DNA of 64,000 bases from Candidatus Pacearchaeota archaeon (GTDB taxonomy: Archaea > Nanobdellota > Nanobdellia > Pacearchaeales > JAPDKA01). A model generated the notes under the pieces. That model did no database searches, was not told the origin of the DNA, and saw nothing but the letters and a program-made list of their open reading frames with translations. Position 1 is the stretch's first letter, and each line of letters opens with the position of its first letter. Below are positions 4,173-50,688 of the stretch, piece by piece. A program made the position numbers and the translations under genes. The stretch is taken from positions 419,910 to 483,909 of the forward strand of contig JAWAFA010000001.1 in NCBI GenBank assembly GCA_038890875.1, written 5' to 3'.

Positions 4173-4175
4173 TAA

Positions 4176-4646
4176 CTAACCAAAGAGCTTGCCGATTACA
4201 AATGTAACTAAAATCACGACTGCAGCTATCGTCAAATGTTCTAAAATAACTTTATAAGATTTTATTTTTTCTTTTTTTGAAATATAGTAACTGAGCATAC
4301 TAAGAAGAAAGATTCCGTAGGTGATACTTAGTATTACTGCAATTGTTTTTGAAAAAAGAATGATAAAAATAAGAAAACTTAAGGCAATAAAAAATTTTGC
4401 TAGAAAAGTTGTAAATGTTGCTTCCCATATATATTTTGTTTTGTATTTTGCCTCAGCTTCAGTTCCAATATGCATGCCTAAAGCATCACTCAATGCATCA
4501 GCGATAGCAATAGTGATAACTCCTGCAACAACAATTGTTTTTGAATTGGCTGAAAAATATAACCCGATTATTAAACCAAGAGTAGTAATCACGGCTGATG
4601 CTAAGCCAAAACCAAATCCTCTCTGCAAAAAACTATCAAAAGCCAT
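4176..4646 (-). CDS. VIT1/CCC1-like (DUF125) membrane protein.
   Basis: Multi-TM protein. ADALSDALGMHIGTEAEAKY resembles the VIT-family GAlSMAaGEYvS motif. Confidence 0.4.
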   Translation of the reverse strand: MAFDSFLQRGFGFGLASAVITTLGLIIGLYFSANSKTIVVAGVITIAIADALSDALGMHIGTEAEAKYKTKYIWEATFTTFLAKFFIALSFLIFIILFSKTIAVILSITYGIFLLSMLSYYISKKEKIKSYKVILEHLTIAAVVILVTFVIGKLFG

Positions 4647-4675
4647 TTAAAATTAAGACGTCAGAGTTAAAAAAG

Positions 4676-4704: not shown

Positions 4705-5097
4705 ATGAAACTTGATATTGCTGCAAAAAATGGAAAAACTTATCATTATGAACTTGCTAAAGAGAAAGAGGTATTATTTATTGGTAAAAAGATAGGTGAA
4801 AAGATAGCCGGGGATGAATTAGGCAATGATTTTAAGGGCTATGAGTTTGAAATAACCGGTTTTTCAGATATTCGTGGATTTCCTGGAGTTAAGGGAATTC
4901 CTGGAAGTAATGTAAGAAAAGTTTTACTTGGTTATGGAGTAGGAATGCAGAAAAGAAGACCGAAAGGTATGAGAAAGAAAAAAAGTATTCATGGCGAAGA
5001 AATTGCTAATGATGTAGCCCAAGTGAATTTAAAGATAGTGAAAGAAGGTGAGAAAAAAATAGATGAAATTATCCCGCCAAAAGAAAAAAAAGAGTAA
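4705..5097 (+). CDS. rps6e: 30S ribosomal protein S6e.
   Basis: MKLDIAAKNGKTYHYEL...ITGFSDIRGFPGVKGIPGSNVRKVLL is typical S6e. Adjacent to aIF2-gamma as in many archaea. Confidence 0.85.
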   Translation: MKLDIAAKNGKTYHYELAKEKEVLFIGKKIGEKIAGDELGNDFKGYEFEITGFSDIRGFPGVKGIPGSNVRKVLLGYGVGMQKRRPKGMRKKKSIHGEEIANDVAQVNLKIVKEGEKKIDEIIPPKEKKE

Positions 5098-5152
5098 GCT
5101 TATTTCTAAAGCTTTTGCAAAACCTTTTTAAAAAACACAAATTAAGTTATTG

Positions 5153-6430
5153 ATGGAAAAACTAAAACAGGAAAAAATAGAAAAAGATAAAGTAAAATTT
5201 TTACAGCCCGATATAAATATTGGGTTAATTGGGCATATTGATCATGGCAAGACAACATTGCTTTACAAACTTTCTGGAAAATGGGCAGATGTGCATAGTG
5301 AAGAGTTAAAACGAGGGATTACAATAAAGCTTGGATATGCTAACATAATCATTAGAAAATGTGAGAAATGTGGTTATTTAACTTACAAAGAAAATTGCCC
5401 GAAATGTAAGGCTCAAACTTTACCTTTAAGAAGTGCAAGTTTCATTGATGCCCCAGGGCATAAGATGCTTATGGCCAGCATGCTCGGAGGAGCAGCGATA
5501 ATTGATGCAGCAATTCTTGTTATTGCCGCAAATGAGCCTTTTCCTCAACCACAAACAAAAGAACACTTTCTTGCTTTTAAAGCAAAAGGCATTAAAGATT
5601 TGATTATTGTCCAAAATAAAATCGATCTTGTAAGTAAGGAACAAGCACTTAAACAATATTATGAAATAAAAGAATTTATCAAAAAGAATTTTGACAAAGA
5701 AGTTTCTATCATTCCTTGCTCAGCTCAGCAAGAAGTTAACATCGACCTTGTTCTTAATGAAATCCTAAAATTGCCGAAACCTGAGCGCGATATTAATGCT
5801 ATTCCTTTATTCCTTGTTGTAAGAAGCTTTGATGTTAATCTTCCTGGCTCTAGCATTGATGATTTAAAAGGTGCCATTCTCGGGGGTACATTAAAGCAAG
5901 GCAGATTGAAAGTCGGGGATATAATTGAGATAAAGCCAGGCTTAGCTGTAACAAAAGAAGTAAAACATGAAAAAGTTATAGAATATAAAACTTTAAAAGC
6001 AAAAATAATAAGTTTAAGAAGTAATGGTGAATTGCAAGAAGCATTACCTTATGGCAATCTTGCAATTCAAACATCTCTCGATCCAGGATTAGGAAAAGCT
6101 GATAGACTTGCTGGTTCAATTGCTGGTCTCGAAGGAAGTTTGCCAGCGATAACAAAAGAAATTCAATTTAAAGCTCAACTTTTTGAAAAACTAGTTGGTA
6201 TAGAAAAGGAAGAGAGTATCAGCGATATTAAACCCAACGAGATTCTTCTTTTAAGCATAAATACTGCAGTGACTGTTGCTAAAGTTGTCAAAGTTGAAAA
6301 AAAAGGGAGAGAATTTTTCGTAAAAGCGAATCTTACAATACCAATTGTTCCCTTTGCAGGCTCTAATATAAGTATTGCAAGAAATTATCAAAACCAATGG
6401 CGTCTAATTGGTTGGGGAAGCCTGCTTTAA
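5153..6430 (+). CDS. eif2g: Translation initiation factor aIF2 gamma subunit.
   Basis: GHIDHGKTTL, the zinc-ribbon CEKCGY...CPKC, and DAPGH. The ORF track starts at TTG 5150; ATG at 5153 is more likely. Confidence 0.9.
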   Translation: MEKLKQEKIEKDKVKFLQPDINIGLIGHIDHGKTTLLYKLSGKWADVHSEELKRGITIKLGYANIIIRKCEKCGYLTYKENCPKCKAQTLPLRSASFIDAPGHKMLMASMLGGAAIIDAAILVIAANEPFPQPQTKEHFLAFKAKGIKDLIIVQNKIDLVSKEQALKQYYEIKEFIKKNFDKEVSIIPCSAQQEVNIDLVLNEILKLPKPERDINAIPLFLVVRSFDVNLPGSSIDDLKGAILGGTLKQGRLKVGDIIEIKPGLAVTKEVKHEKVIEYKTLKAKIISLRSNGELQEALPYGNLAIQTSLDPGLGKADRLAGSIAGLEGSLPAITKEIQFKAQLFEKLVGIEKEESISDIKPNEILLLSINTAVTVAKVVKVEKKGREFFVKANLTIPIVPFAGSNISIARNYQNQWRLIGWGSLL

Positions 6431-6859: not shown

Positions 6860-9367
6860 CTAGGAGCTATTGGAGTTATTGAGGGTTGTTGGCTCTGTTT
6901 TTATAACATCGACATCTATAACTTCGTCATCCGATTTTAACTTAATAATTCTCACTCCTTGAGCAATCCGTGACATGCTCCTTATATCTTTAGCATTGAA
7001 TCTAATTATAATCCCCTGTTTTGTTATTAAAATTATACTCTCATTTCCTAGAATTGTTTTAATACAAACAACTTTTCCTGTTTTTTCACTTAATGAAATA
7101 TTCTTCACTCCTATTGCAGCCCTCTTTGTTAATCTATATTCTTCAATAGGTGTTTTTTTGCCATAACCTTTACTCGTAACTGTTAAAAGCTGTGAACCAG
7201 GTTCAACAATTGTCATGTCTGCAACTTGATCATTCTTTAGCTTAACAGCTGTCACTCCATAAGCAGCTCTTCCCATCTCTCTAACTTCACTACTATTAAA
7301 TCTTACAGCCATCCCTTGTGCGGTAGCAATTATAATTTCACTATCTTTTTCTAAAACAAATGCTTCAACAATTTCATCATCGAAAGGGAGTTTTATTGCG
7401 CGAATGCCACTCTTTTTTATATTTCTGAACTCTTCTAAACTTGTTTTCTTTATTATCCCTTTTCTTGTGACAATTAATAAAAATTGTCTTCCCCCTTTTG
7501 CTTCACCCTTTTCAGCCTTAGCCTTCATTACAATCACTGCTTTTAACCTTTCTTCAGGCTTTATTGCTAACAAATTACTTATATGCTTTCCTTTGCCATA
7601 TCTTGAAGATTTTTGAATTTCATAAGCACGAAGCAAAAATGCATTGCCTCGATTTGTTATAAAGAGAATGTTATCATGTGTTGAACATGCAATAATCTTA
7701 TTAATATAATCATTTTCAGTAAGCATAGTCCCAATTATTCCTTTACCACCTCTCTTTTGCTCGCGAAACTCTTCAATGCTGATAGCATTTATATACCCTC
7801 TATAACTCAATGTTAAAACTATATCCTCTTTTTTTATCAATTCAATCTCACGAATTTCTTTTTTTTCAGCCATGATCTTTGTTTTTCTTTCATCTCCATA
7901 CTTATTTTTTATTTCACGAAGTTCTTCTTCAATTACTTTCAAAATATTTTGTTCAGATTTCAAAATCTCACTAAGTTCAGAAATCTTTCTCTCAAGTTGT
8001 TGTTTTTCTTCCTGTATTCTTTCTTGTTCAAGTTTTGTTAAACGTGAAAGTTTTAAATCAAGAATTGCTTGCGCTTGTTTTTTAGTTAAACCAAAATTGC
8101 TGATTAGCAACTTTTCTGCAACTGTAACTGAATCAGCCTTTTTAATTGTTTCAATAACCTTATCTATCACGCCCAAAGCAATAATAAATCCATCAAGAAT
8201 ATGCTTCCTTTCAGTTGCAACCTCTAGCTCATATCTTGTTCTTCTTTTTACAACCTCTTTTCTATGCTTAACATAATACTCTATAGCATCTTTCAAATTT
8301 AGTAATTTTGGTATTCCAGAAACGAGAGCAACGAAAATTGCATTAAAACTAGTTTCAAGCGAAGTATAGTTATAAAGTCGATTTATTATCAATTTTTCAT
8401 TGGCCTCTTTTTTTAGTTGTAACACTATCCTAATCCCTGCCTTTGTCGATTCATCACGCAAATCGCTCACATCAGGAAGTTTTTTTGTTTCGATAAGCTT
8501 AGCTATCTCTTGAATTAAAATTGATTTATTAACTTGATATGGTAGTTCCTTAATTATAACATACTTTTTACCAGCTTTTTCTTCACTGCTTACCACACCA
8601 CGCATAATTATCTTACCAACTCCTTTTTCATACATTTCTTTCATTCCTTGAGTAAAAATAATGCCTCCCGTCGGAAAATCAGGACCTTTAATGTAATCTA
8701 AAAGTTCATTAATACTAATTTGTGAATTTTTTATGTAAGCAATAATAGCATCAACAACTTCAGTTAAATTGTGTGGTGGTATTGATGTAGCCATACCTAC
8801 AGCGATTCCTTGTGAACCATTTATCAATAAATTTGGCAATTTTGCTGGTAGCACAACTGGTTCTTTCATGCTGTTATCAAAATTGGGCATGAATGGAACA
8901 GTTTCTTTATCCAAATCTTTCAAGAGCTCAACAGCAATTTTACTCAGCTTTGCTTCAGTATAACGCATTGCTGCAGGCGCATCTCCATCAATGCTCCCAA
9001 AATTTCCTTGACCAATAATCAAAGGATAACGTAGAGAAAAATCTTGAGCCATCCTTACTAAAGCATCATAAACAGCAATATCTCCGTGTGGATGTAATTT
9101 TCCGAGACATTCACCAACAATCCTTGCTGTTTTCTTTGTTGGTTTTTCTGGTAAAAGTCCCATTTCATACATTGAATATAATATCCTTCGCTGAACAGGT
9201 TTCAAGCCATCTTCAACACTTGGTAAAGCTCGCGCAACAATTACTGACATTGCATAATCAATATAGGCTTTGCTAACCTCTTCACTTATTTCAGCTACAT
9301 GACCATTTTTATTATTATCACTATTCATATTGTTTTCATTTTTTTCGTCTTTCTTATCTTTCTCCAT
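6860..9367 (-). CDS. gyrA: DNA gyrase subunit A.
   Basis: [26 protein letters not shown] and the active-site Tyr region. 835 aa. C-terminal beta-pinwheel repeats. Confidence 0.95.
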
Positions 9368-9389
9368 TTTCTCAATCTATTTTATTTAA

Positions 9390-9755
9390 TCAACAAGTAA
9401 CATGAAACAAGCCAGCCTTTTTTTCTTTGATTTGATTAAATATTCTAATTGCTTCAGGTGTTTTAGCTATTTTATACTTTATTTTTAATCTCTTTAATAG
9501 TTCAATCGCTCCTTCTTCGAGTTGAGCACATCCCTCTTGCCCTATCCCAAAAACTATTATTTCTGGCCTACCTTTACTTAATAAATTTTCAATTTCTTCT
9601 TTACAAAAATAATGGCCAGTTCCATATTTAATTTTACTTAATTCTCTACTTCTCTCACTAATCTCGCCATTAGCAAAAATAAAGATATCATGTTCATAAG
9701 TTTTCTTATTAACAGTTATGCTTCCAAACTCGGTTTTATTAATATAAGCCTCCAT
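9390..9755 (-). CDS. Mth938-like domain protein (DUF498 family).
   Basis: 121 aa. FGSITVNKKTYEHDIFI...IIVFGIG pattern resembles Mth938/AAMDC proteins. Confidence 0.4.
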   Translation of the reverse strand: MEAYINKTEFGSITVNKKTYEHDIFIFANGEISERSRELSKIKYGTGHYFCKEEIENLLSKGRPEIIVFGIGQEGCAQLEEGAIELLKRLKIKYKIAKTPEAIRIFNQIKEKKAGLFHVTC

Positions 9756-9761
9756 TTTTAT

Positions 9762-11663
9762 TTAAATATCAAGTTCAGCTTCTTTTGCATGTTCAATGAT
9801 GAATTGTTTTCTTGGTTCAACTTTTTCTCCCATCAAAATCGTGAATGTTCTATCAGCTTCGATAGCATCTTCAATAGTAATTTGCTTTAGCTTTCTTGTT
9901 TTTGGGTCAAGTGTTGTTTCCCAAAGCTGTTCTGGGTTCATTTCACCAAGCCCTTTAAATCTCGTTACTTCAGCTTTTTCATCTTTAACTAAATCCTTCA
10001 ATTCATCTTCATTATAAACATAATAATCTTTATTCCCTCTTCTTACCCTATAAAGAGGAGGAACTGCTACATAGATATGCCCATTCTCAATAAGTTGAGG
10101 CATATATCTAAAGAAAAATGTTAGAAGTAATGTTTTAATATGCTGCCCATCGACGTCAGCATCGGTCATTATAATTATTTTACCATATCTAAGCTTTGTT
10201 AAATCAAATTCATCACCAACATTTGTACCAACACTTTTTATTAAGGCAGCTATTTCTTCATTGGCAAAAATTTTATTATGCCCTGCTTTCTCAACATTTA
10301 AAATTTTTCCACGGAGTGGTAATATAGCCTGAAATTCTTTGTTTCTTGCTTGTTTTGCACTACCTCCAGCACTGTCTCCTTCAACAATAAAAAGTTCAGC
10401 AATCTCTTTTTTTGTTGATGAACAATCGGCAAGTTTTCCTGGAAGATTCCCGGCAAAAAGAGCCCCTTTTCTTCTTACGAGCTCCTTAGCTTTTTTTGCC
10501 GCTTCTCTTGCTTTAGCAGCTTCGCTAACTTTTTGTAAGATTCTTTTGGCAATACTTAGATTTTCATCAAAAAATTGTGAAAGTTTATTATTGACAACAC
10601 TTTCAACAATTCCTTTAACCTCACTATTTCCAAGTTTTGTTTTTGTCTGGCCCTCAAACTGTGGATTCGGCAGTTTTACATTTATTATTGCTGTTAATCC
10701 TTCCCTCGTATCATCACCCATAATTTTTATTTTTGATTTTTCATCTGCATAATCGCTTAAAACTTTTGTTAAAGCTGTTTTAAAACCTATGACATGTGTA
10801 CCTCCTTCGATAGTATTAATAGTGTTAACAAAGCTAAAAATATGCTCAGTGTAACCATCAAAATACTGTAAAGCAATTTCTACAAACACTCCATTTTTTT
10901 GATCACTAAAATAAATTGGTTTATGTAAAGGATTTTTCTCTTTGTTCAACCATTCAATAAAATCAATAAGCCCGCCTTTAGAAATAAATCTTTCTTTTTC
11001 TCCAGAAGCCTCATTAATTAACTGTATTTCTAAATCTTTATTTAAAAAACTTAGTTCTTGAAGTCGGATTTTTATTAACTTTTGATCGAAGTTAATCGTT
11101 TTAAAAATTTCTGGATCAGGCCAAAACCTAACTTCTGTTCCTGTTTCATCTGTTGTTCCAATTACTTTAACAGGAGTTAAAGCATTACCTCGCTCATACT
11201 CTTGACAATAAATTTTTCCATCTCTATAAACTTTTACAATCATCTTCTTACTTAGTGCATTTACTACACTTGCTCCAACTCCATGGAGGCCTCCAGAAAT
11301 TGCATATACTTTATGATCAAATTTACCTCCAGCATGTAACATTGTCATCACTGTTTCAAGTGCTGATTTACCTGTTTCTTTGTGAATTTCTACAGGAATC
11401 CCTCGCCCATTATCTTTAACACTAACTGACCCATCTTTATGTAATGTAATTTTAATTGATGTGCAATATCCCGCCATTGCCTCATCAATGCTATTATCAA
11501 CAATCTCCCACATTAAATGATGTAATCCCTCTTTACCAGTGCTTCCTATATACATTGCCGGTCTTCGACGTACTCCTTCTAATCCTTTTAATACTTGTAT
11601 AGCTTCCGCTGTATAAGCTTTTGCTTTTTCTTTTTTTTCTTGTTTTTCTTTTTCGTCGGTCAT
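9762..11663 (-). CDS. gyrB: DNA gyrase subunit B.
   Basis: GHKL ATPase motifs (LHAGGKFD), the Toprim motif EGDSAGGSAKQARNKEFQAILPLRGKILNVEKA, and PLYR. Confidence 0.95.
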   Translation of the reverse strand: MTDEKEKQEKKEKAKAYTAEAIQVLKGLEGVRRRPAMYIGSTGKEGLHHLMWEIVDNSIDEAMAGYCTSIKITLHKDGSVSVKDNGRGIPVEIHKETGKSALETVMTMLHAGGKFDHKVYAISGGLHGVGASVVNALSKKMIVKVYRDGKIYCQEYERGNALTPVKVIGTTDETGTEVRFWPDPEIFKTINFDQKLIKIRLQELSFLNKDLEIQLINEASGEKERFISKGGLIDFIEWLNKEKNPLHKPIYFSDQKNGVFVEIALQYFDGYTEHIFSFVNTINTIEGGTHVIGFKTALTKVLSDYADEKSKIKIMGDDTREGLTAIINVKLPNPQFEGQTKTKLGNSEVKGIVESVVNNKLSQFFDENLSIAKRILQKVSEAAKAREAAKKAKELVRRKGALFAGNLPGKLADCSSTKKEIAELFIVEGDSAGGSAKQARNKEFQAILPLRGKILNVEKAGHNKIFANEEIAALIKSVGTNVGDEFDLTKLRYGKIIIMTDADVDGQHIKTLLLTFFFRYMPQLIENGHIYVAVPPLYRVRRGNKDYYVYNEDELKDLVKDEKAEVTRFKGLGEMNPEQLWETTLDPKTRKLKQITIEDAIEADRTFTILMGEKVEPRKQFIIEHAKEAELDI

Positions 11664-16176: not shown

Positions 16177-16863
16177 TTGGAAATGAAATCAAGAAAAAAT
16201 ACTATCAAAGATAAAAGCTATTTTTATGGCCTATCTGTTTTATTTAAATCGCTTTATGCTGCCAATATCCCTGCCGTCTTAGTTGGAGGCACAGCTGTCC
16301 AAGTAAGAATTGCTCGCGCTTTGGCTAAACATAATAATAGCAAGCCAGACATCTCGAAAATTAATGACATTGAAAAATATCTAAGACCGACGAATGACTA
16401 TGATATCTGTGCTTTAAGTAAAGATGACGCGCTCCAAAAAGTAATCCAAGGATTAAATATTGAAGAAGAAATTGATGATGAAATTTATCAAATCGAAGTT
16501 AGTCGAAATGGAATTGTCAAGCCAAAAATCAAAGTTTATAGCTTAAATGGTGCTTATAATGAAACTGAGATTGTATTAAATTTTTCAAGAAATGCTAGCA
16601 ATACAAATTTTTTTAAAGATTATTATGATGAAATGATTTTTTCTGGAGAGGAGATTAGTTTATTTAACGAGCAATTAAAAGCTGAAATTACTGTAGCTAA
16701 ACCAGAATATATTGTTGCGGCAAAACTTATGAGGGGAAAAGAAAGAGATTTTCATGATATTAACCTTTTACTCAACTTTGAAAAAATCGATAAACAAGAA
16801 TTAGCAAGGATTATGAAGCATGAAATTTATCGTTTTGAGAACTTAACCGATCTAAATCATTAA
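16177..16863 (+). CDS. Nucleotidyltransferase-fold protein (minimal NTase, possibly AbiEii/DUF1814-like).
   Basis: Glycine-rich VLVGGTAV followed by DYDI (GS...DxD arrangement of pol-beta-like NTases). Confidence 0.3.
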   Translation: MEMKSRKNTIKDKSYFYGLSVLFKSLYAANIPAVLVGGTAVQVRIARALAKHNNSKPDISKINDIEKYLRPTNDYDICALSKDDALQKVIQGLNIEEEIDDEIYQIEVSRNGIVKPKIKVYSLNGAYNETEIVLNFSRNASNTNFFKDYYDEMIFSGEEISLFNEQLKAEITVAKPEYIVAAKLMRGKERDFHDINLLLNFEKIDKQELARIMKHEIYRFENLTDLNH

Positions 16864-17560
16864 CCAATTCATCGATGAATTGTTCAAGATATTCGAGAAT
16901 AACAAGTCCACTATAATTTTTTTCTTTCAAATTTTCAAGAAATTTTTCAATTGGCAAATCTCCCATCGCTATTGGTAAATGCTTCTTTGGACCCTGATTT
17001 TTATTCAGTCGGTTGTAATACTTATTACTTAAATGTACTACTTTTATTTTTTCTCTGTATTTATTAAATTCTTCTATTATGTCAACATCTCGTGTATGGC
17101 TTATATCATAAGTCATACTAATAAAATCGAAGTTTAAATTAAAAATTTGTTCTGGCGTGTTAATCCATCTTCTTCTTTTCTTTTCAAAATTTTCATAACA
17201 CAGGACTATACCGAGGTTTCTTATAGCTTGCGCTTTATTTTTTAAAGCTTCAAGTGCAAAATAATAACTCTCATTTCGTGGATTTAATGTAAAAATCTTA
17301 ACCTCGTAGTTTTGCTTAATCTGGGCTATTACATTAATAAACTCCTCATTAAAAACATCAATATTAGGTAAATGTGCTGAGATTATGTTAATATCATAGT
17401 CTTTTATTATTCTCCTTACCTTATCATGGGGAGTAGCTTTAAAGTCTTCAAGTTTGTGAAAAGAAATTTCAACTGCTTTACCCTTAAATCTCTCGAGCTT
17501 TTTTTCTAATCTTTCTGCATTCCGATCAGGATAAATAAATATTGATGCGCCAAATTTCAT
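16811..17560 (-). CDS. TIM-barrel sugar phosphate isomerase/epimerase-like (xylose isomerase-like fold).
   Basis: 249 aa with alternating beta/alpha pattern and conserved acidic/His positions typical of the AP-endonuclease-2/xylose-isomerase-like superfamily. Weak. Confidence 0.35.
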   Translation of the reverse strand: MKFGASIFIYPDRNAERLEKKLERFKGKAVEISFHKLEDFKATPHDKVRRIIKDYDINIISAHLPNIDVFNEEFINVIAQIKQNYEVKIFTLNPRNESYYFALEALKNKAQAIRNLGIVLCYENFEKKRRRWINTPEQIFNLNFDFISMTYDISHTRDVDIIEEFNKYREKIKVVHLSNKYYNRLNKNQGPKKHLPIAMGDLPIEKFLENLKEKNYSGLVILEYLEQFIDELVNDLDRLSSQNDKFHAS

Positions 17561-17569
17561 TTTATATTT

Positions 17570-20500
17570 TTAATGGCGCACTTTTTTCACTATTATTGCC
17601 ACGGCTAGGATTACTATGATTAAACCAAGTAAAGCAATTATAGCAATATGCCAGTTGCTTTTTAACCAACCTATTACCCCACCAGTTACTGGGATTATGG
17701 GTAATCTGTCGACAAATAAGCCAATTATTGCTGCAGAGTCTACCAACGCTACTACTTTTCCATTCTCTTTATCCCAAACACTCTCTATTTTCCTCCATCC
17801 ACCACCTTCATAATTATAGATAAACAAGTTAGCTCCTTCAGCGAACTCCTCATTGATCTTTATTATTAACTCTACATCTTCACCGAATCTCACAGCTGGC
17901 GTAAACTTGTACGCTCGCACTAAATAAACATCTTGTGGCAATGTTGGAAGCAGCGTTAAATCAGTGATTTTTTCAATTTTTATAGTATTTGGATCGATTT
18001 TATTATTATTGTTATTTACTACCTCTATACTTGATAGTAGCCTCACTATTACTAATCTATCATCACTTTTTATTTCAATAGCCTTAACTTTTGGTTTTGG
18101 CGTTGTTGTAACTGTTAAATTTGGAATAATTTTGCAATCTTGCGGGCAATAAACACTTTCATTGCCTTCACAAATGTTATTGCCACATATTGGCGCTACG
18201 AGAGCTTCTCTTCCTCCTCCACCTCTTTCCTCTACTATCTTTTGCACAACTCTAAAACTAATTGTGCTCCATGCTGAAGTTCCGTGAACATCAGTAACCT
18301 TTACTTTGGCAATATACCTTCCTGGATTGTTATACGTATGAGTTGCTGTTGAAACATTTATTGCACTATAATCAAATGTCCCATCATTTGTCCAGTCCCA
18401 TTCATATGTTATATTATCATTTGTATTAAATTGTCCTCCTATTAATGCATTGAATGAAATCGATTCATCTTCATAATAAGGAGATGGGCTTGTGATAACA
18501 ATTCTTACAGATGGTAATGCAGAACTATTACTTAAGTTTAGTGGGGTGTTATTTGTTGCATTATAAGTGAAATTTGTTGTTATTATAGTACCATTATAAA
18601 GAACATTATCAGTAACATTTGCATCTATTAATGTCGCATTTCCGAGTGTTGAATTTGTTATAATTGTATTGGTTGCCGTTATATTCTCTAAATCAGAATT
18701 AATAACAGTACTATTATTTAAACTTGAATTATTTATTGTTGAATTTGTGACGTTGGAATCATTGAGCATAGAGTTTGTAATTGTTGAATTGTTTGTTGTT
18801 GAATTTGTTAAAGTTGAGTTTTCAATCTCAGAGTTTTCTACAGTTGAATTTATGAGCATTGAATTTGCAACTATTGAATCGCTAATATTACTATAATCCA
18901 AATTTGAGCTTTCAATTGTTGAGTTACTAATATTTGAATAGGTGATATTCGATTCGTTTATTATAGCCTTATCAACATTGGAGTATGTTATATTTGAATA
19001 ACTAACGTTGGAGTAAGTAACATTTGACTGATATGTGTGTGAGTTCGTTAAGTTTGAACCAGTTAAGTTGTTAGTTGGTTGTGGGGGGTCATAGATGCCA
19101 TCAGCAAGATAGCAGTTTGAAGCTATTATACCTTTAACTGTTGCATTGATTACCGTACAATTATTTAAAATTGAATTATTAATTATTGATGCTGTCGCAT
19201 TTACAGCCGTTAGCCAGGAATTTTCTACAGTTGAATTATCTATATTTGAATCTAAGATTAAAATATCCTCATTAAAGTTACCTCCAGCTGATGCTTTAAT
19301 GGTTGAGAAATTCTTTATTATTGAATCATTTATATTATTAAATATTCCTGTTGACTGACTCACATAGAATGTGCCGTTCACTGTCGAATTAAATATCCAG
19401 CCAGTGTCAAGAGTTACTACACTTGTTGTTGTTGATGTAATATTACTAATGCTTGTATTTGAATTGCTTGTTGCAATTACATTTACAATATAAACCCCTG
19501 GATTGGAATCACTAACAGTGAGACTAACTATATAACTTCCCCCTTGATTTAACATAGGAGTTGTTGTTTCATTCAAAATTGCTTGATCAGCATTATTAAT
19601 ATTTTGTATTGTTAAATTAAAGTTGTCTTGAGTATCGCCGATGTTTGTTATATTTATTGTATAAATGGCTGGCTCAAGTAAGCCGACAGTTTGTGATGAT
19701 GGAGTTGCTGTTATGCTTACACCATAGTCTGGAACTGGATTAACTGTTACAATAATAGTGTCATTTGCACTGTATTCGCCATCCGATGCTATAAGTGTAA
19801 CCTCAGCAATTCCATTCCAATTTGGATTTGCTGTTATATTAACTCTTGTGCCAACAAATGTGACGATAACATTACTATTATTTGAAGTAAATGAATAAAC
19901 TAATGTTGCATTATCAACATCCGCAAAGTAATTTGTCATGTCAAGGCTATCATTGTAACTATCTTCGTCGAAAGTTACATCTGGAATTAAGGTGATTAAG
20001 TAAGGAGCATCATTTACAGGGACAACATTTATTGTAACCGTGGCTATATTACTATTAGCTTCTCCATCATTAGCAACATATGTAAAGCTATCTATACCAT
20101 TAAAGTTTGCATTTGGTATATATGTGAAGGAACCGTCAGAGTTGAGAGTTAAGACACCATTGGAGACGTTTGTTACTAAGATTGCTGAAAGTATATCAAT
20201 ATCAATATCAGAATCATTAACTAATAACCCTTGAGCTGTGGGAACAGTTAAGATGTTATCCTCATTTGTGTTATAAACATCATTTTGTATAACTGGAGGC
20301 GTATTTTTTATATCTTTTACTACTGTTATATTACCAGAAAACTCTATTCCATCAAACGCGCCAGCAATTACCAACACATCATCATTTTTATTACAGCCAG
20401 CTGAGGTTAAGCAGTCGAATGTATTATTCGTAGACCAGGTTTGTAATATAACTCCTGTTGCATTATTTCTAAATTCATAATAATAAGTGATAATATCACC

Positions 20501-23341
20501 ATCAACATCGATTGAGCCTGTTGCATTAGCAATTAAGGTTGAACTCTTATAAGCTGGTGTTGGTTCAACTATCAAGCTTGGAGGAGTTGTTGGCGCGTCA
20601 TTTATAGGGTTAACTATAACAGTAACCGTTGCTATGTTTGAAATATTTGCACCATCATTAGCTATATACCTAAAGCTGTCTATTCCATACCAATCAGGTT
20701 CAGGTATATAAATGAAAGATCCATTTGCATTTAATACCAAATTACCATGAGAAACACTATTTACAAGGACGGCTGTTAGTGTATCACCATCTACATCACT
20801 ATCATTTGCTAAAACTCCAGGAGCAGAAATTGTAAGTATATCATTTTCATTTACACTATAAGTATCATCATTAGCAAGAGGAGCATCATTTACTGGACTC
20901 ACATTTATTGTTACAGTTGCAACAGAACTATTATCCATGCCATCACTTACTATATAGCTAAAGCTATCAATGCCGTTGAAGTTTGGATCTGGGGTGTATA
21001 TGAAAGAGCCGTCTGAGTTGAAAATTAAGTTACCATTGCTAACACTACTCACAAGAATTGCTGTTAATGTATCGCCATCAGTATCATTATCATTTGCAAG
21101 CACACCCGGAGCTGGAATGCTTAATGATTCGTCCTCCAAAATTTCATAATAATCATCATTTGCAATAGGCGCATTATTAATTACAGTTGTCGTTATATCT
21201 TGAGTTTCATTATATAATCCTGCATTTATTGTTGAATTGGCATAGACTCTAACTACATAACTTCCTGGAATGCTTGAACTCACGTCGAGCTGTACGAGCT
21301 TACTTTCGCCAGCTCCAAGAATTATAGAACTTTCATTTAGCCAGACATTTGCACCATTATAATTTATAACACCAAGCACAAAATTATTCCAAACATTCCC
21401 AGTGTTTGTTATATTAATAATGTAAGTTGCATTGGCATTTTTTGAAACTGTTCTTGCGTAACTATCACTCTCCAAGATAACACCAAGTTGCAAATCATTA
21501 CTAAATCCTCTCGTGCATTGCTGGAATTGCCAATCACTTAAAGTATTAGTATCTTGGCCATTTGGCACTCGTGCCCAGCAAAGATCATTGCCAAGAGTGT
21601 CGGCAAGATTATAAGATACATCATCAACAATCTGATTGAAGTTATCATACAAAGTTATATTTTCACCACCATTGTTCAATAAGTTTGATGCAGATCTGAT
21701 TAAGTAACTTCCAGCATTGATAATCTGATTTAATGGAAGCACATTTCCTGCAGCGTCACGAATATACCAGCCAGTGACATTAACATCATTTGCTGTCGGG
21801 TTATAAAGCTCTATCCAATCTCCGCTAGGAGTTCCGTTATTGCTTTCAAATTCATTTATGATAATAGCTGGTGGTGGTAAGAGTACAGTAAAGGCAACAG
21901 ATGCGCTTGCTAAATTTCCACTAGTGTCATTTGCCCATGCCTCAATTACATGCATGCCTTGAGCAAAAGTTTGTAAAATTGAATTTGTATATGTTATATT
22001 CACCCCCCCATCAATACTATACCAAACCTGATCAATAGCTACGTTATCGCTAGCACTAATATTTATCAAAATATCGCTTACAGTGTATGTTATGTTTTCA
22101 GGACTAACGATTATTATACTAGGAGCTTGTGTGTCTTGCACAGAAATATTAAAGCTAACACTTGCCGAGCCAACATTGTTGCTTACATCTTGAGCATAGA
22201 TGAATAGTGTATATGCACTATTTGCCAAGGTAAGAGTTGTGTTCTGGCAGCCTGGCAAGTTTTGAGGGGCCCCACCATTTAAAACATACCAACAAGCAGC
22301 TATACCATCATCATCAGAGACAATATAGTTTAATGGAATTGGCAATGATGCATAAGTTTGACCATCTTCAGGGCTAATTATAATGACACTTGGAGCATTG
22401 ATATCCCCAACTATGATTTGTTTTGTTGTACTTCTTTCATCACCATCAGCATCTCTTGCTGTCAACACAACATCGTAAGTGCCAGGCATGTTATAAGCAT
22501 GGCTTACACTTTGGCCATTTGCAATACCACCATCACCAAAATCCCAGCTAAAAGTAAGTGGTGCATCAAATGCTGTTCCACTCGCAATGAAACTTACGAC
22601 TTGGCCTATTGACGGAGAGCTCGGAGAAAAGCTGAAATCAATATTTTCAGGGACAGTATCTATAATGGTAACTCTCCAACCAGCAGAGGCTGTATTACCT
22701 CTACCATCACTTACAATAACTGCTATGTCAAAAACTTGAGCATCATTTACATTTGGTAGCTGCAATAGAAAGCTGTTTCCGCTTGCACTCTGTTGCTGAT
22801 TGTTGACATACCAAGTATAACTCAAAGTATCGCCATTTGGATCACTGGCAATTACAACAAAACTTTGTTGCAGTACGGCTTCACTTACACTAAAGGTATC
22901 TTGTGATGGGCTTTTGCTTGTTATTTGCGGTGGCTGATTAGATCCTTCAAAATAAATCCTTAATGTTTCACTTGTTGCGGTTTTGCCGCTTTTATCTTTT
23001 GTTCTTGCGTAAAAACTATGCCAGCCTGCTGTGTTATGCGTTACAATAGTTTGTAATGCACATGTACTAAAACCAGCACAATCTTTTTCAGAATAGAGTG
23101 CACCATCTTCATAAAGCCATATTTTTATAAGTCCAGCATTGTCGTCAATATCAATCCCATTGGCAAGTAGCGTAGATTGTGAAAATATTGGATTATGTGA
23201 AATTTCGCTTAGGGTAATCTTCGGAGCATAGTCATAAGCTTTTGCTAATTTGAGCATAAATAAGCTAAACATAAATATACTTATTACTAAAAAAGCCAAT
23301 ATCTTTCTATTCATCTTATAATTAATTTTAATGTTTACCAT
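17570..23341 (-). CDS. Giant (1923 aa) cell-surface protein. Domain order: signal peptide/TM, Ig-like repeats, lamin-tail domain, three cadherin-like repeats, NST-x-x pentapeptide repeat tract, PKD domain, Cys-rich stalk, C-terminal TM anchor.
   Basis: N-terminal hydrophobic MNRKILAFLVISIFMFSLFML. LTD signature PPPAIIINEFE...DWIELYNPT...VNVTGWYIRD. Three ~100-aa repeats, each ending VNDAP (DGDTLTAxLVxSVSxGNL...NGIDSFxY). A tract of NSTVENSEIENSTLTNSTTNNSTITNS... PKD-like WDWTNDGTFDY...HTYNNPGRY. C-terminal IAIIALLGLIIVILAVAIIVKKVRH. Very many N-x-S/T sequons. Confidence 0.85.
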   Translation of the reverse strand: MVNIKINYKMNRKILAFLVISIFMFSLFMLKLAKAYDYAPKITLSEISHNPIFSQSTLLANGIDIDDNAGLIKIWLYEDGALYSEKDCAGFSTCALQTIVTHNTAGWHSFYARTKDKSGKTATSETLRIYFEGSNQPPQITSKSPSQDTFSVSEAVLQQSFVVIASDPNGDTLSYTWYVNNQQQSASGNSFLLQLPNVNDAQVFDIAVIVSDGRGNTASAGWRVTIIDTVPENIDFSFSPSSPSIGQVVSFIASGTAFDAPLTFSWDFGDGGIANGQSVSHAYNMPGTYDVVLTARDADGDERSTTKQIIVGDINAPSVIIISPEDGQTYASLPIPLNYIVSDDDGIAACWYVLNGGAPQNLPGCQNTTLTLANSAYTLFIYAQDVSNNVGSASVSFNISVQDTQAPSIIIVSPENITYTVSDILINISASDNVAIDQVWYSIDGGVNITYTNSILQTFAQGMHVIEAWANDTSGNLASASVAFTVLLPPPAIIINEFESNNGTPSGDWIELYNPTANDVNVTGWYIRDAAGNVLPLNQIINAGSYLIRSASNLLNNGGENITLYDNFNQIVDDVSYNLADTLGNDLCWARVPNGQDTNTLSDWQFQQCTRGFSNDLQLGVILESDSYARTVSKNANATYIINITNTGNVWNNFVLGVINYNGANVWLNESSIILGAGESKLVQLDVSSSIPGSYVVRVYANSTINAGLYNETQDITTTVINNAPIANDDYYEILEDESLSIPAPGVLANDNDTDGDTLTAILVSSVSNGNLIFNSDGSFIYTPDPNFNGIDSFSYIVSDGMDNSSVATVTINVSPVNDAPLANDDTYSVNENDILTISAPGVLANDSDVDGDTLTAVLVNSVSHGNLVLNANGSFIYIPEPDWYGIDSFRYIANDGANISNIATVTVIVNPINDAPTTPPSLIVEPTPAYKSSTLIANATGSIDVDGDIITYYYEFRNNATGVILQTWSTNNTFDCLTSAGCNKNDDVLVIAGAFDGIEFSGNITVVKDIKNTPPVIQNDVYNTNEDNILTVPTAQGLLVNDSDIDIDILSAILVTNVSNGVLTLNSDGSFTYIPNANFNGIDSFTYVANDGEANSNIATVTINVVPVNDAPYLITLIPDVTFDEDSYNDSLDMTNYFADVDNATLVYSFTSNNSNVIVTFVGTRVNITANPNWNGIAEVTLIASDGEYSANDTIIVTVNPVPDYGVSITATPSSQTVGLLEPAIYTINITNIGDTQDNFNLTIQNINNADQAILNETTTPMLNQGGSYIVSLTVSDSNPGVYIVNVIATSNSNTSISNITSTTTSVVTLDTGWIFNSTVNGTFYVSQSTGIFNNINDSIIKNFSTIKASAGGNFNEDILILDSNIDNSTVENSWLTAVNATASIINNSILNNCTVINATVKGIIASNCYLADGIYDPPQPTNNLTGSNLTNSHTYQSNVTYSNVSYSNITYSNVDKAIINESNITYSNISNSTIESSNLDYSNISDSIVANSMLINSTVENSEIENSTLTNSTTNNSTITNSMLNDSNVTNSTINNSSLNNSTVINSDLENITATNTIITNSTLGNATLIDANVTDNVLYNGTIITTNFTYNATNNTPLNLSNSSALPSVRIVITSPSPYYEDESISFNALIGGQFNTNDNITYEWDWTNDGTFDYSAINVSTATHTYNNPGRYIAKVKVTDVHGTSAWSTISFRVVQKIVEERGGGGREALVAPICGNNICEGNESVYCPQDCKIIPNLTVTTTPKPKVKAIEIKSDDRLVIVRLLSSIEVVNNNNNKIDPNTIKIEKITDLTLLPTLPQDVYLVRAYKFTPAVRFGEDVELIIKINEEFAEGANLFIYNYEGGGWRKIESVWDKENGKVVALVDSAAIIGLFVDRLPIIPVTGGVIGWLKSNWHIAIIALLGLIIVILAVAIIVKKVRH
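18650..19075 (-). repeat. Intragenic tandem 15-nt/pentapeptide coding repeats (NST-x-x units) inside the giant surface-protein gene.
   Basis: Repeated gttgaatttgt / attgaattat-like units on the plus strand. They encode N-S-T/N-x-T pentapeptides, likely a beta-helix or glycosylated stalk. Confidence 0.6.
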
Positions 23342-25197
23342 TTTGCCTTAAAACCTAGATAAATTTCCCCAGATTTAATTTTGTTGCCAACAGTATTCAT
23401 TTCACCGCATCCAAAAATTCCCCAACTTTTTCTTTTTCCTTCACTACAAACACTGTAACTATTACGATTTTGATTTGTATCTAGAGAATATTTACTTTCA
23501 ACTCCCCACTTTTCATTTCCATAACCAAAAGTGAAACCATAATTAGGTCGATTCTTGTCAAAGTTAACATCAACACCACCATAAAAGCTTGTTGCATTTA
23601 ATAACTTTTCTATATCATTAATCTTATTCAAACCTTCAGGATTTGGTAGATAATTTAAATAAATTTTGTGTTGCCTATTGAAATAATTATTATTACCATA
23701 CCAAAGCGAGATTTTGTTATTTGCATCATCTTTGAAATAATTAATGATTAACGAGTTAGGACCAATATTATAAGCAAAATTTAAAATACCTTCGACATGG
23801 TCAGTGTTATCCACATTAGGTCCAATATTAACAAGAGGGACAAATTTTAATTCTAACTCTTTATGCTTATACTCTAAACTCGCTCCTATAGGAAAAACTC
23901 TTTTAATCTCTCTCATTTTGTCACTATATGATATTGTGTCATAATTTTGTATTTCGAAAGTATCACAAGAAACCTCTTCACCATTTATATAAACACATGT
24001 TGTGCCAGATGTTTTATTATTAACAATCTCTACTAAATCTAACTTATTCTTCACTCTACTTTCTTCGATCCCTCCGATTATCCCTCCATAAAGCCTTCCA
24101 ATTTTTTGCTTTGCTTTAATTCTTGCTTTTGTTAAAAGTTCATCTGTTTTGCTTTTTCCATTAACATTAATAAATGTTTCAATATCGCCTTGTGTTACCG
24201 TTCTAATTTCAAAAGGATTGTTCGTTATGTCTTCTTCGTAAAAAGGAGTTATTTCTTGATAAGTCTCATTTATATCATCTCTACTCATCTTAGTAGTAAT
24301 ACTAACATTCCCTTCAATATTCAAGAAGGCATTCTTCCAACCAATAGAGCCATGATATATCATTGGCATTTCTAATAAAGTTCCTTTTTCTTTTTTTTCA
24401 AAACTAATGCCCAGATCTCCATAGATATCACTTTCTCTACCTTTTCCGATCCCTTTCCTTCCCTCTCCAAACAACGTTACTCTTTGTTCTTTTCTTCCTC
24501 CCGTACCAAAAAAGAATACCTCAATATTATCTCTATTATTTTCACCAACATTTACTTTTGCATCATAACTAACAATTCCTTGACTATTATAATCTAAATC
24601 TCCTAAAAAAGAGACTGAACTAGGTTTTATTATTTTTATCTCATTTTGTCGAGGTGGTATTTGAGGTTTGATTTGCAATAGTTCTTGAGGTTTTGGCTTT
24701 TCTTTCTTTTCTTTTTCTTTGATGATAGTTTCAACTTGCTCAGAAATTATCTCTTCTTCTTTAGGTTTTTTCTTAACTTCTTGTGCCATCATCTCTTTTT
24801 TTTCTCCTTTGAATAAAACCCCATAAGATTTAGGATCGATTAATTTTTTAATCTCGTCCAAATTATTTGGTTGTAATGAGTAAACATAACCTCCTGCTTT
24901 AACAAAAATCTCTTGAGAATTATTTTGAATAAAAACTAATGTTACGGGATCAGACAAGTTTAAGCAATTACTAAGCACTGTTTGAATCTCAGGATCAACT
25001 ATTGTATACTCTGTTCCAAGTGAATATTCAATAGCTTTTACAGATGTTTTGTAGTCTTTACTTTCTTTTTTACTCCAAAAATCTTCAGCTCTTGGGCATC
25101 CTGACTGGTTTTCTAACCCTTGTGTTAAACCAAGACTACCAAGAGCAATTCCCAAAGCAAAAATTATGCTCTCCAGAGTTCTTTTCAATTTTGTCAT
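23335..25197 (-). CDS. Secreted 620-aa protein with a beta-strand-rich, OMP-like C-terminal domain. Co-transcribed with the giant surface protein (7-nt overlap).
   Basis: N-terminal signal peptide (IIFALGIALGSLGLTQG). Central K/E-rich linker. C-terminal approx. 300 aa with alternating hydrophobic dyads (FTFGYGNEKWGVESKYSL, GEIYLGFKAKW) ending in W. Confidence 0.55.
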   Translation of the reverse strand: MTKLKRTLESIIFALGIALGSLGLTQGLENQSGCPRAEDFWSKKESKDYKTSVKAIEYSLGTEYTIVDPEIQTVLSNCLNLSDPVTLVFIQNNSQEIFVKAGGYVYSLQPNNLDEIKKLIDPKSYGVLFKGEKKEMMAQEVKKKPKEEEIISEQVETIIKEKEKKEKPKPQELLQIKPQIPPRQNEIKIIKPSSVSFLGDLDYNSQGIVSYDAKVNVGENNRDNIEVFFFGTGGRKEQRVTLFGEGRKGIGKGRESDIYGDLGISFEKKEKGTLLEMPMIYHGSIGWKNAFLNIEGNVSITTKMSRDDINETYQEITPFYEEDITNNPFEIRTVTQGDIETFINVNGKSKTDELLTKARIKAKQKIGRLYGGIIGGIEESRVKNKLDLVEIVNNKTSGTTCVYINGEEVSCDTFEIQNYDTISYSDKMREIKRVFPIGASLEYKHKELELKFVPLVNIGPNVDNTDHVEGILNFAYNIGPNSLIINYFKDDANNKISLWYGNNNYFNRQHKIYLNYLPNPEGLNKINDIEKLLNATSFYGGVDVNFDKNRPNYGFTFGYGNEKWGVESKYSLDTNQNRNSYSVCSEGKRKSWGIFGCGEMNTVGNKIKSGEIYLGFKAKW

Positions 25198-25275: not shown

Positions 25276-25530
25276 TCATTCGCTAGATTTTGCAAGAGCA
25301 CGCCGTATGCTTATAATTATAATAACTAAAAGGATTATTAAGAATAAAATCAAAAATGAAAAGAACCAAATAGTAGAATTGCTAATCTTTCCATCATTGA
25401 CTACCCCTCCACTTATGGCATTATTGACCTCATTGACCTTTAAAGCATCGACAAATAAAAAAATAAGCACTGCAATAAAGATTATTATTATAAGAATAAA
25501 CACTGCTCCTGGATTTCCTTCTTCTTCCAT
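25276..25530 (-). CDS. Small two-TM membrane protein.
   Basis: Start trimmed to MEEEGNPGAVFILIIIIFIAV. The longer ORF would overlap the divergent downstream gene. Confidence 0.3.
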   Translation of the reverse strand: MEEEGNPGAVFILIIIIFIAVLIFLFVDALKVNEVNNAISGGVVNDGKISNSTIWFFSFLILFLIILLVIIIISIRRALAKSSE

Positions 25531-50579: not shown

Positions 50580-50688
50580 TGGGCCCTAGCGGATTTGAAC
50601 CGCTGACCTCTGGTTATCCTAGCGCTCTTGTCAAATTGACAAGTGGCCATATAAGACCAGCGCTCTAACCTAGCTGAGCTAAGGGCCC
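50580..50688 (-). tRNA. tRNA-Ile with anticodon UAU, containing a 34-nt intron at the canonical 37/38 position (about 50616..50649).
   Basis: Reverse complement: GGGCCCT-TA-GCTCAGCTAGGTTAGAGC-G-CTGGT-CTTATA[intron TGGCCACTTGTCAATTTGACAAGAGCGCTAGGAT]A-ACCAG-AGGTC-AGCGG-TTCAAAT-CCGCT-AGGGCCC-A. The exon sequence is of the archaeal tRNA-Ile type. Confidence 0.7.

Follow-up and report, generated by a model that had tools for sequence, protein, structure and literature searches.

By what means do Pacearchaeota make contact with a host cell or a surface? To our knowledge, these archaea are uncultivated and their mode of contact with hosts or surfaces is not known. The question is raised by one locus in a 64,000-nucleotide (nt) stretch of DNA from a Candidatus Pacearchaeota archaeon, here called the window. 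Between positions 17,570 and 25,197, its minus strand carries a gene for a giant protein of 1923 amino acids (aa) and, directly upstream, a gene for a 620-aa protein. An earlier note, made from the sequence alone, described the giant as a surface adhesin and the 620-aa protein as its partner in export and anchoring, a putative beta-barrel resembling outer membrane proteins (OMPs). Our analysis favours, with a probability of about 0.6, a reading in which the giant would be a type-I membrane-anchored, heavily N-glycosylated fibre of Pacearchaeota, and the 620-aa protein an extracellular accessory or envelope partner, both encoded in a co-transcribed cassette.

The two open reading frames (ORFs) and their 7-nt overlap, reported in the earlier note, are confirmed by the ORF list and the translations. 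Both products are 100% identical to proteins of a Candidatus Pacearchaeota metagenome-assembled genome, and NCBI taxonomy lists this archaeal clade under Nanobdellati (DPANN). The source organism is accordingly a DPANN archaeon, in agreement with the archaeal translation factors and a presumably intron-bearing tRNA in the window. The window, with a GC content of about 31%, also contains genes for aIF2-gamma, an aIF5B-type factor, an IF-2B-family protein, gyrase and pyruvate:ferredoxin oxidoreductase. The two genes, and the modules into which the giant can be divided from its signal peptide to its transmembrane (TM) helix, are as follows.

17570..23341, minus strand: gene for the giant surface protein, 1923 aa (ORF and translation)
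23335..25197, minus strand: gene for the upstream secreted protein, 620 aa (ORF and translation)
23237..23341, minus strand: signal peptide region of the giant, aa 1-35 (…KILAFLVISIFMFSLFMLKLAKA / YDY), hydrophobic at aa 12-35, cleavage site predicted
22937..23236, minus strand: distal N-terminal domain, aa 36-135, no family match, Cys pair 88/94, orthologues 47-68% identical
21881..22936, minus strand: Big_9-like module (aa 136-232), PKD domain 1 (aa 233-312) and two Big_7 modules (aa 313-487), from the segment Pfam scan
21509..21880, minus strand: lamin-tail domain (LTD), aa 488-611, PF00932 match at aa 491-578
21179..21508, minus strand: beta-sandwich module, aa 612-721, weakly CARDB-like (E=0.41, not significant), 84% identical in L006
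20603..21178, minus strand: tandem-95/bacterial cadherin-like repeats 1 and 2, aa 722-913 (Pfam, NCBIfam), motifs DNDTDGD and DSDVDGD
20303..20602, minus strand: module aa 914-1013 with Cys pair 977/983, no Pfam match, absent or poorly aligned in orthologues
19751..20302, minus strand: tandem-95 repeat 3 (aa 1014-1109, DSDIDID) and degenerate repeat 4 (aa 1110-1197), Pfam, repeat 4 with Big_9 at 21.2 bits
19445..19750, minus strand: beta-sandwich module, aa 1198-1299, no significant family match, 87% identical in L006
18527..19444, minus strand: sequon-dense beta-helix region, aa 1300-1605 (Pentapeptide_4, register analysis, PDB matches)
18206..18526, minus strand: PKD domain 2, aa 1606-1712, PKD_4 35.1 bits, PKD 29.4 bits
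18047..18205, minus strand: Gly-rich hinge, four-Cys motif CGNNICEGNESVYCPQDC and Pro/Lys/Thr linker, aa 1713-1765 (from the sequence), motif kept in the L009 anchor protein
17573..18046, minus strand: juxtamembrane domain (aa 1766-1888, conserved, no Pfam match), TM helix (aa ~1893-1917) and basic tail KKVRH

From its sequence, the giant is a membrane-anchored surface protein with roughly 17 immunoglobulin (Ig)-like modules (Big_9/tandem-95 ×3–5, PKD ×2, Big_7 ×2, LTD). Lamin-tail, cadherin-like and PKD families, all named in the earlier note, were recovered above curated Pfam cut-offs: the whole protein scored 197.9 bits with Big_9 (four stretches), 184.2 with Cadherin_5, 172.3 with Cadherin_4, 85.6 with PKD_4 and 68.9 with PKD (two stretches), and the LTD, whose match spans positions 6-108 of the 109 in the profile, reached 49.0 bits (cut-off 34.3). 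NCBIfam added tand_rpt_95 with 227 bits in four stretches (curated cut-offs: PF17963, 23.6 bits; NF012211, 90 bits; PKD, 27). When aa 136-487 were scanned as segments, Big_9 (24.8 bits), PKD_4 (69.5 bits) and Big_7 (48.3 bits, two stretches) were found. The bacterial cadherin-like families PF17803 and PF17892 match the giant, PF16184 does so weakly, and the classical cadherin PF00028 is absent from it in Pfam. Five stretches (aa 36-135, 612-721, 914-1013, 1198-1299 and 1766-1888) gave no significant family match in the segment scan.

Some details of the earlier description needed correction. Its three cadherin-like repeats of about 100 aa exist, with acidic loops DNDTDGD at aa 751, DSDVDGD at 847 and DSDIDID at 1043, and are followed by a degenerate fourth; only two of them end in VNDAP (aa 817 and 1109), the other ending in INDAP (aa 913). 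Instead of one PKD domain there are two, at aa ~238-312 (69.5 bits) and ~1632-1710 (35.1 bits), and the ColH PKD structures in the PDB match with an E-value of 1.8e-10. The Cys-rich segment proved to be the motif CGNNICEGNESVYCPQDC, whose four cysteines lie at 1719/1724/1732/1736; elsewhere the cysteines form close pairs inside modules, and both arrangements fit a protein predicted to be extracellular. Both ends of the molecule are as had been described, with the N-terminal hydrophobic stretch preceding the modules and a C-terminal hydrophobic helix of 25 residues preceding KKVRH. An N-terminal signal combined with a C-terminal TM helix implies type-I topology, which would place about 1,850 residues outside the cell.

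Between the beta-sandwich module of aa 1198-1299 and PKD domain 2 lies the region that holds what the earlier note had described as an NST-x-x pentapeptide tract. The note had also called the sequons of the giant extremely dense, and both statements stand. The giant contains 81 N-x-S/T sequons, as opposed to 42.5 ± 5.4 in composition-preserving shuffles (z about 7), an excess that likewise fits an extracellular position; 39 of the 81 fall within aa 1300-1600. From aa ~1425 to ~1600, about 35 pentapeptide repeats follow each other in a strict five-residue register with the consensus S-N-[LIV]-T-N. Pentapeptide_4 (PF13599) reaches 41.5 bits on the isolated segment (cut-off 38) and only 29.7 bits on the whole giant, and pentapeptide beta-solenoids in the PDB match the tract, namely 4yfo (E 1.6e-8) and Np275/276 (2j8k). 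The tract is, by predicted fold, a pentapeptide-repeat beta-helix, and a repeat unit that reads N-[LIV]-T is at the same time a sequon. With known pentapeptide repeat proteins of the Rfr fold (Np275/Np276, PDB 2j8k), the tract shares an A(D/N)LXX-type repeat in strict register, and it matches PF13599. In the giant, unlike in them, the helix would be an extracellular module of an adhesin whose consensus serves as a glycosylation site as well.

Archaeal surface-layer (S-layer) glycoproteins, too, are rich in sequons and Ig-like modules and have a membrane anchor, and neither Pfam nor NCBIfam nor the segment scan revealed a lectin, protease or toxin domain in the giant. The giant might thus be mainly a structural component of the envelope (S-layer substitute, sheath or spacer) rather than a host-contact adhesin. 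We consider this unlikely. NCBIfam finds in it neither PGF-CTERM or another archaeosortase signal nor any S-layer family, and its C-terminus (…PVTGGVIGWLKSNWH-TM-KKVRH) lacks a PGF motif; a long tandem-95/PKD rod is found in bacterial fibrillar adhesins, and the number of repeats varies among orthologues (1923-2367 aa), as is typical of adhesins.

Since the gene has internal repeats, the ORF could be suspected to be an assembly artefact, made of collapsed or chimeric repeats, and the earlier note had named this as a possible refutation. The chance of this is next to nil. The repeat copies are only 63-71% identical in DNA, and Tandem Repeats Finder detects no tandem array in the gene except a 34-nt trace. 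The identical 1923-aa protein (P0003) was found in two sources (NCBI and Logan) on two contigs, and collinear full-length orthologues of 2057-2367 aa, differing in repeat number, occur in five other assemblies. The giant is already automatically annotated in GenBank, as 'tandem-95 repeat protein', and as a protein type it is an expected one. To its counterpart in the L006 locus it is 57-60% identical in amino acids and 71-80% in nucleotides; among more distant orthologues, the best-conserved block is the anchor module, i.e. the juxtamembrane domain and TM helix. Identity in some domains rises to 84-95% in amino acids. Recent recombination between lineages was considered as a source of these segments and rejected, as nucleotide identity amounts to only 71-80%; the mosaic of domain identities is in part a product of repeat misalignment.

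The closest known relatives in architecture are bacterial adhesins of the tandem-95/Big_9/VCBS type (NF012211; PF17963, PF17892, PF17803), which share the repeat of about 95 aa with a DxDxDGD loop, the PKD and Ig-like modules and a length of about 2000 aa. The archaeal giant differs from them in combining a Sec signal with a C-terminal TM helix, instead of a type I secretion system (T1SS) with RTX repeats, a type IX secretion system C-terminal domain or an autotransporter barrel; PF00353, PF18962 and PF03797, present in several bacterial relatives, are all missing from it. Further differences are the glycosylatable pentapeptide helix embedded in it and a juxtamembrane module specific to its lineage. 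T1SS RTX adhesins of the LapA/SiiE type are set apart by the same two features, PF00353 being absent from the giant and its C-terminus being a TM helix.

Giant adhesion proteins anchored by a C-terminal TM helix are a recognised feature of DPANN symbionts (PMC6642349). The SPEARE proteins of Nanohaloarchaeota are giant, mostly extracytoplasmic proteins with a TM helix near the C-terminus, proposed to act in host contact (Hamm et al. 2019, PMC6642349), and their defining parts are a serine protease, adhesion domains of the laminin-G type and, on the cytoplasmic side, a type III restriction-enzyme domain (PMC6642349). Our protein resembles them as a giant DPANN surface protein, predicted to be mostly extracytoplasmic, with adhesion domains and a C-terminal TM helix. 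It has, however, no serine-protease, laminin-G or toxin domains, its cytoplasmic tail of 5 aa holds no restriction-endonuclease domain, and it is about three times smaller. Surface proteins are known to evolve fast in Nanoarchaeota (PMC6142677).

What, then, is the 620-aa protein? It begins with a signal-like N-terminus (aa 1-~27), followed by a conserved alpha/beta N-domain (aa 34-130, motif CP..FW..YK.S), a Lys/Glu-rich linker (aa 131-195) and a beta-rich C-domain (aa 196-620, about 425 aa) that ends in …IYLGFKAKW. In its family, the N-domain of about 100 aa keeps an invariant C-P…F-W…Y-K-x-S. No member gave anything above threshold in Pfam and NCBIfam searched at E<=10, and a PDB profile search with the full-length protein returned only a chance TrmBL2 match in the linker. 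The family is rare: a word-indexed homologue search found the protein itself and one 95% identical fragment, and an exhaustive phmmer search of 1.8 billion representative proteins found this fragment and one relative (P0123, 677 aa, 39% identity). Scans located one locus in genomes, and zero and one loci in two metagenome scans. Further distant members, with 25-28% identity, turned up in genes beside giant orthologues; common to them are the motifs of the N-domain and the last ~90 residues. With motifs invariant across three lineages at 25-39% identity, the 620-aa gene is a real coding gene of a fast-evolving family so far confined to one Pacearchaeota clade. In comparison with L006, the 620-aa protein is 38% identical in amino acids (65% in nucleotides over one fragment), as against 57-60% for the giant and 71% for the IF-2B protein, which makes its gene the fastest-evolving of the block. 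A lipobox at the invariant Cys34 was ruled out, since orthologues read QQRQC there. Neither the window nor the fetched loci contain paralogues of its domains.

The earlier note's secreted, beta-rich character of this protein agrees with the signal-like N-terminus and with amphipathic periodicity of the beta type in the C-domain of the family, which somewhat exceeds shuffles (z 0.7-2.8). OMP-likeness is another matter. In all lineages, the family ends in a terminal aromatic residue after alternating hydrophobics (GIEYRF, GINVEF, GVEIKF, IYLGFKAKW); this C-terminal aromatic amphipathic strand recalls OMPs, and only 3 of 197 other ORFs match the pattern. It is suggestive, not being specific to OMPs. 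Two AlphaFold2 runs, one full-length from the single sequence (predicted local distance difference test, pLDDT, 33.4) and one on the C-domain with an alignment of three sequences (pLDDT 28.8), gave no confident fold; both placed long beta-hairpins at matching positions, and neither formed a barrel. Among families of OMPs, Omp85, POTRA, Bac_surface_Ag and autotransporters, none exceeded threshold in the scanned family members, and the protein of the window had no match at all; the best sub-threshold result was PF03797 Autotransporter in one orthologue (14.7 bits against a cut-off of 26, E 0.026). Alignment of the family with the autotransporter beta-domain of P0040 by hhalign gave a probability of 0.7%, and a PDB profile search with the C-domain gave no matches at E<=10.

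These data bear on the possibility that the protein is an OMP-like transmembrane beta-barrel, lying in an archaeal outer membrane or in a host membrane and exporting or anchoring the giant, much as in TpsB/TpsA, autotransporters or PorP/SprF-SprB. Those systems likewise place the gene of a mid-size beta-rich protein next to that of a giant adhesin, probably in one transcript. The periodicity, the concordant hairpins, the terminal strand and the sub-threshold Autotransporter match can be cited in its favour; some archaea, ARMAN-type DPANN included, also possess two membranes (PMC4243693). We nevertheless find such an exporter or anchor improbable. The family, hhalign and PDB searches are negative, no detectable homology links the protein to the systems named, the predicted models (pLDDT below 35) lack a barrel, and probable disulfide pairs lie within its putative strands. 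We further know of no outer membrane or barrel-assembly machinery in Pacearchaeota, which also counts against a barrel. In addition, the giant is self-anchored and has its own Sec signal, so that a dedicated exporter or anchor is not required. The beta-barrel export and anchoring pair of the earlier note is thus not sustained (no family, PDB or hhalign match; pLDDT 29–33). A bolder version, in which the family of 620-675 aa is an unrecognised DPANN transmembrane beta-barrel or beta-pore inserted in an archaeal outer membrane or in the host membrane at the site of fibre contact, is very improbable. It would build on the terminal aromatic strand, which resembles a beta-signal, on the many amphipathic hairpins, on the lack of similarity to known families and on the place of the gene right before a giant adhesin. 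If true, archaea would have a native family of beta-barrel membrane proteins, the first of its kind, and the conduit between symbiont and host that has long been sought would have a candidate. Only this family is potentially surprising at the locus, and the present evidence does not establish a beta-barrel.

The two genes do not stand alone. A conserved three-gene cassette, newly recognised here, consists of a small protein with two TM helices, the secreted protein of 620-675 aa and the giant. At least four related lineages keep it at a fixed slot (IF-2B … AMMECR1/M48). In L001, L003, L005, L006 and L007, the order is the IF-2B-family gene, the small two-TM protein, the partner of 645-675 aa and the giant. 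In the window, the upstream part of the cassette reads as follows.

25276..25530, minus strand: gene for a small 84-aa membrane protein with two TM helices, first of the cassette, 35-38% identical to proteins of 120-123 aa at the same position in L001/L003/L005
25531..25628, no strand: AT-rich intergenic stretch separating the cassette from the divergently oriented IF-2B-family gene, a candidate promoter region from its sequence

The L006 equivalent of the small protein has 91 aa. In the ORF list of the window, the 84-aa frame appears only within a 144-aa ORF that starts with GTG and overlaps the start of the IF-2B gene. In the L001/L003/L005 clade, the small protein has an added cytoplasmic tail (…GMSKHQIMKNLLDAGWSKEKIY…), and the same tail ends the 686-aa Kazal/Cys-rich membrane protein of L009.

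Across the related loci, the spacing between partner and giant is -14 to +22 nt, which leaves no room for a promoter before the giant; co-transcription with the partner gene is therefore likely, and we regard the giant of the window as most likely co-transcribed with the 620-aa gene. The translational coupling suggested by the earlier note is less convincing. The overlap runs from the giant's first ATG through the stop of the 620-aa gene (ATGGTAA). Nine codons downstream of this ATG, an alternative in-frame ATG (Met10, nt 23314, MNRKILAF...) begins MNRKILAFLVISIF, an equally good start for a signal peptide, and would leave a 20-nt spacer with no overlap. No Shine-Dalgarno motifs precede genes in the window, and because the genome does without them, the two starts are not separable by such analysis; nor do the giant orthologues discriminate between them, as their N-regions vary in length. 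With an alternative start that removes the overlap, and with tight spacing throughout the genome, the overlap is weak evidence of coupling. The pairing and its close spacing hold in every related locus recovered. A scan for bacterial promoters and terminators returned counts at shuffle level, this type of scan not being applicable to an archaeon.

On these grounds, the fibre would be built as follows. The giant would be exported by the general Sec pathway through its N-terminal signal peptide and probably receive N-glycans of the AglB type. Its extracellular part, outside by the predicted topology, is a chain of the Ig-like modules, with the predicted pentapeptide beta-helix near the membrane. 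As the sequence shows, the juxtamembrane domain, the single TM helix and the short basic tail hold it in the cytoplasmic membrane, in an orientation that the positive-inside rule suggests. By analogy with their family, the DxDxDGD loops probably bind Ca2+ and stiffen the rod, and glycans on outward-facing Asn residues of the helix may shield the stalk. At about 4 nm per Ig-like module and 0.48 nm per beta-helix coil, some 17 modules and some 15 coils would give an extended rod of about 70 nm, with the distal N-terminal modules as the likely end that binds a ligand on a host cell or surface. The 620-aa protein would act outside the cell, as an accessory to the fibre or its partner in the envelope, not as its exporter.

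Several observations weigh against parts of this model. The domains, the predicted topology and the orthologues agree with an adhesin-like surface protein; host attachment, which the earlier note suggested for DPANN giants, is proposed from domain types, and proteins of S-layers and sheaths or proteins that tether enzymes contain such modules as well. The Ca2+ role of the DxDxDGD motifs is a family-based assumption. The 620-aa protein has no detectable binding domain and no excess of sequons (7 against 6.1 expected). Neighbouring genes on one strand of this genome mostly lie 1-13 nt apart, and an AP-endonuclease-family TIM-barrel gene begins 9 nt past the giant's stop. The neighbours IF-2B, HAD, AP endonuclease, AMMECR1 and M48 are as syntenic as the cassette pair, and the proposed functional link of partner and giant rests on adjacency within this syntenic block.

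Some of these points, the synteny of the whole neighbourhood and the genome-wide tight spacing, suit another view, in which there is no specific partnership: the 620-aa protein would be an independent secreted or envelope protein (S-layer-like or matrix) that shares a compact island of surface proteins with the giant. A TATA-like TTTTTTAAA lies about 30 nt upstream of the ATG of the 620-aa gene, the corresponding slot of a sister clade holds different, non-homologous surface proteins, and the 620-aa protein evolves much faster than the giant. This alternative deserves weight, and we still hold it to be doubtful. In 5 of 5 independent loci of the clade, the partner gene immediately precedes the giant in the same orientation, and no instance of the family was recovered without a giant. 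The sister cassette likewise has a secreted beta-rich protein of 475-491 aa right before its giant.

This sister cassette is found in L009, L010 and L011, from more distant Pacearchaeota, where other, non-homologous surface proteins fill the slot between IF-2B and AMMECR1/M48: a membrane protein of 678-718 aa (Kazal/Cys-rich), a small protein, the 475-491-aa protein, a giant of 1910-2073 aa with Ig repeats and without an anchor, and a separate CARDB protein of 555-584 aa. The 475-491-aa protein, directly upstream of its giant, ends in …VILQYGF in two of three loci, and its gene overlaps the giant by 11 nt in L011. Its homology with the 620-aa family was rejected (hhalign 2% and 0.1%), leaving the two as positional analogues at most. 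The sister cassette thus resembles ours in its slot, in a beta-rich secreted protein placed before an Ig giant of about 2000 aa, and in having the same module of Cys motif, juxtamembrane domain and TM anchor; it differs in carrying this anchor on the CARDB protein, in the non-homologous upstream protein and in the extra Kazal/Cys-rich membrane protein. The C-terminal half of the 584-aa CARDB protein of L009 (CGNGICE…CPQDC, juxtamembrane, TM) shares 39% identity with aa 1691-1905 of the giant. As the module sits on a separate protein there, the anchor is portable, and the slot acts like an island of variable surface proteins. The Cys-rich membrane protein genes lie upstream of the giant at 2043-4103 in L009, 1092-3248 in L010 and 363-2399 in L011. 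Those of L009 and L011 encode a Kazal-type protease-inhibitor domain, and no equivalent exists in the window.

What our analysis adds to an annotated giant is accordingly the three-gene cassette, the portability of the anchor module, the variable island at a fixed slot and the rare 620-aa family with its OMP-like C-terminal signature. The locus offers a concrete and conserved candidate for contact by Pacearchaeota, namely a putative glycosylated fibre of about 70 nm with a portable anchor and two small accessory proteins. A fixed slot with clade-specific surface sets also makes the locus useful as a marker when host-interaction repertoires are compared among Pacearchaeota.

The surroundings of the cassette vary as well. 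In L001/L003/L005/L007, two extra genes without Pfam match, one for a membrane protein of 314 aa and one for a secreted protein of 261-274 aa, lie between IF-2B and the cassette (in L001 at 3720-4664 on the minus and 4802-5587 on the plus strand); both are absent from the window and L006. On the other side, an AbiEii/DUF6036-like nucleotidyltransferase ORF (window 16177-16863, plus strand) converges on the AP-endonuclease-family gene (16811-17560, minus strand) with a 3' overlap of ~53 nt. L006 has a different 195-aa ORF and a 151-aa ORF at this place, and the site looks like a small variable insertion beside the cassette. In L001/L002, the AP_endonuc_2 gene (L001 14176-14909) is split in the gene calls into two short ORFs of 119/109 aa and 125 aa, as compared with 228-249 aa in other loci, and could be a frameshift or a pseudogene. 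A cytoplasmic-looking pentapeptide-repeat protein of 203 aa is encoded shortly downstream of the giant in the L001-type clade (minus strand; L001 15329-15940, L003 16256-16867, L005 16584-17195) and is absent from the corresponding stretch of the window.

Three further observations concern the rest of the window. Another probable secreted protein, 379 aa long and containing a CAP/SCP (cysteine-rich secretory protein) domain, is encoded at 1206-2345 on the plus strand. Genes for bacterial-type DNA gyrase A and B lie at 6860-11663 on the minus strand, with a 121-aa ORF between them. At 50580-50688 (minus strand), a 109-nt tRNA match covers the full Rfam model and adjoins tRNA-Glu; ARAGORN made no call there, and the match is presumably an intron-containing archaeal tRNA.

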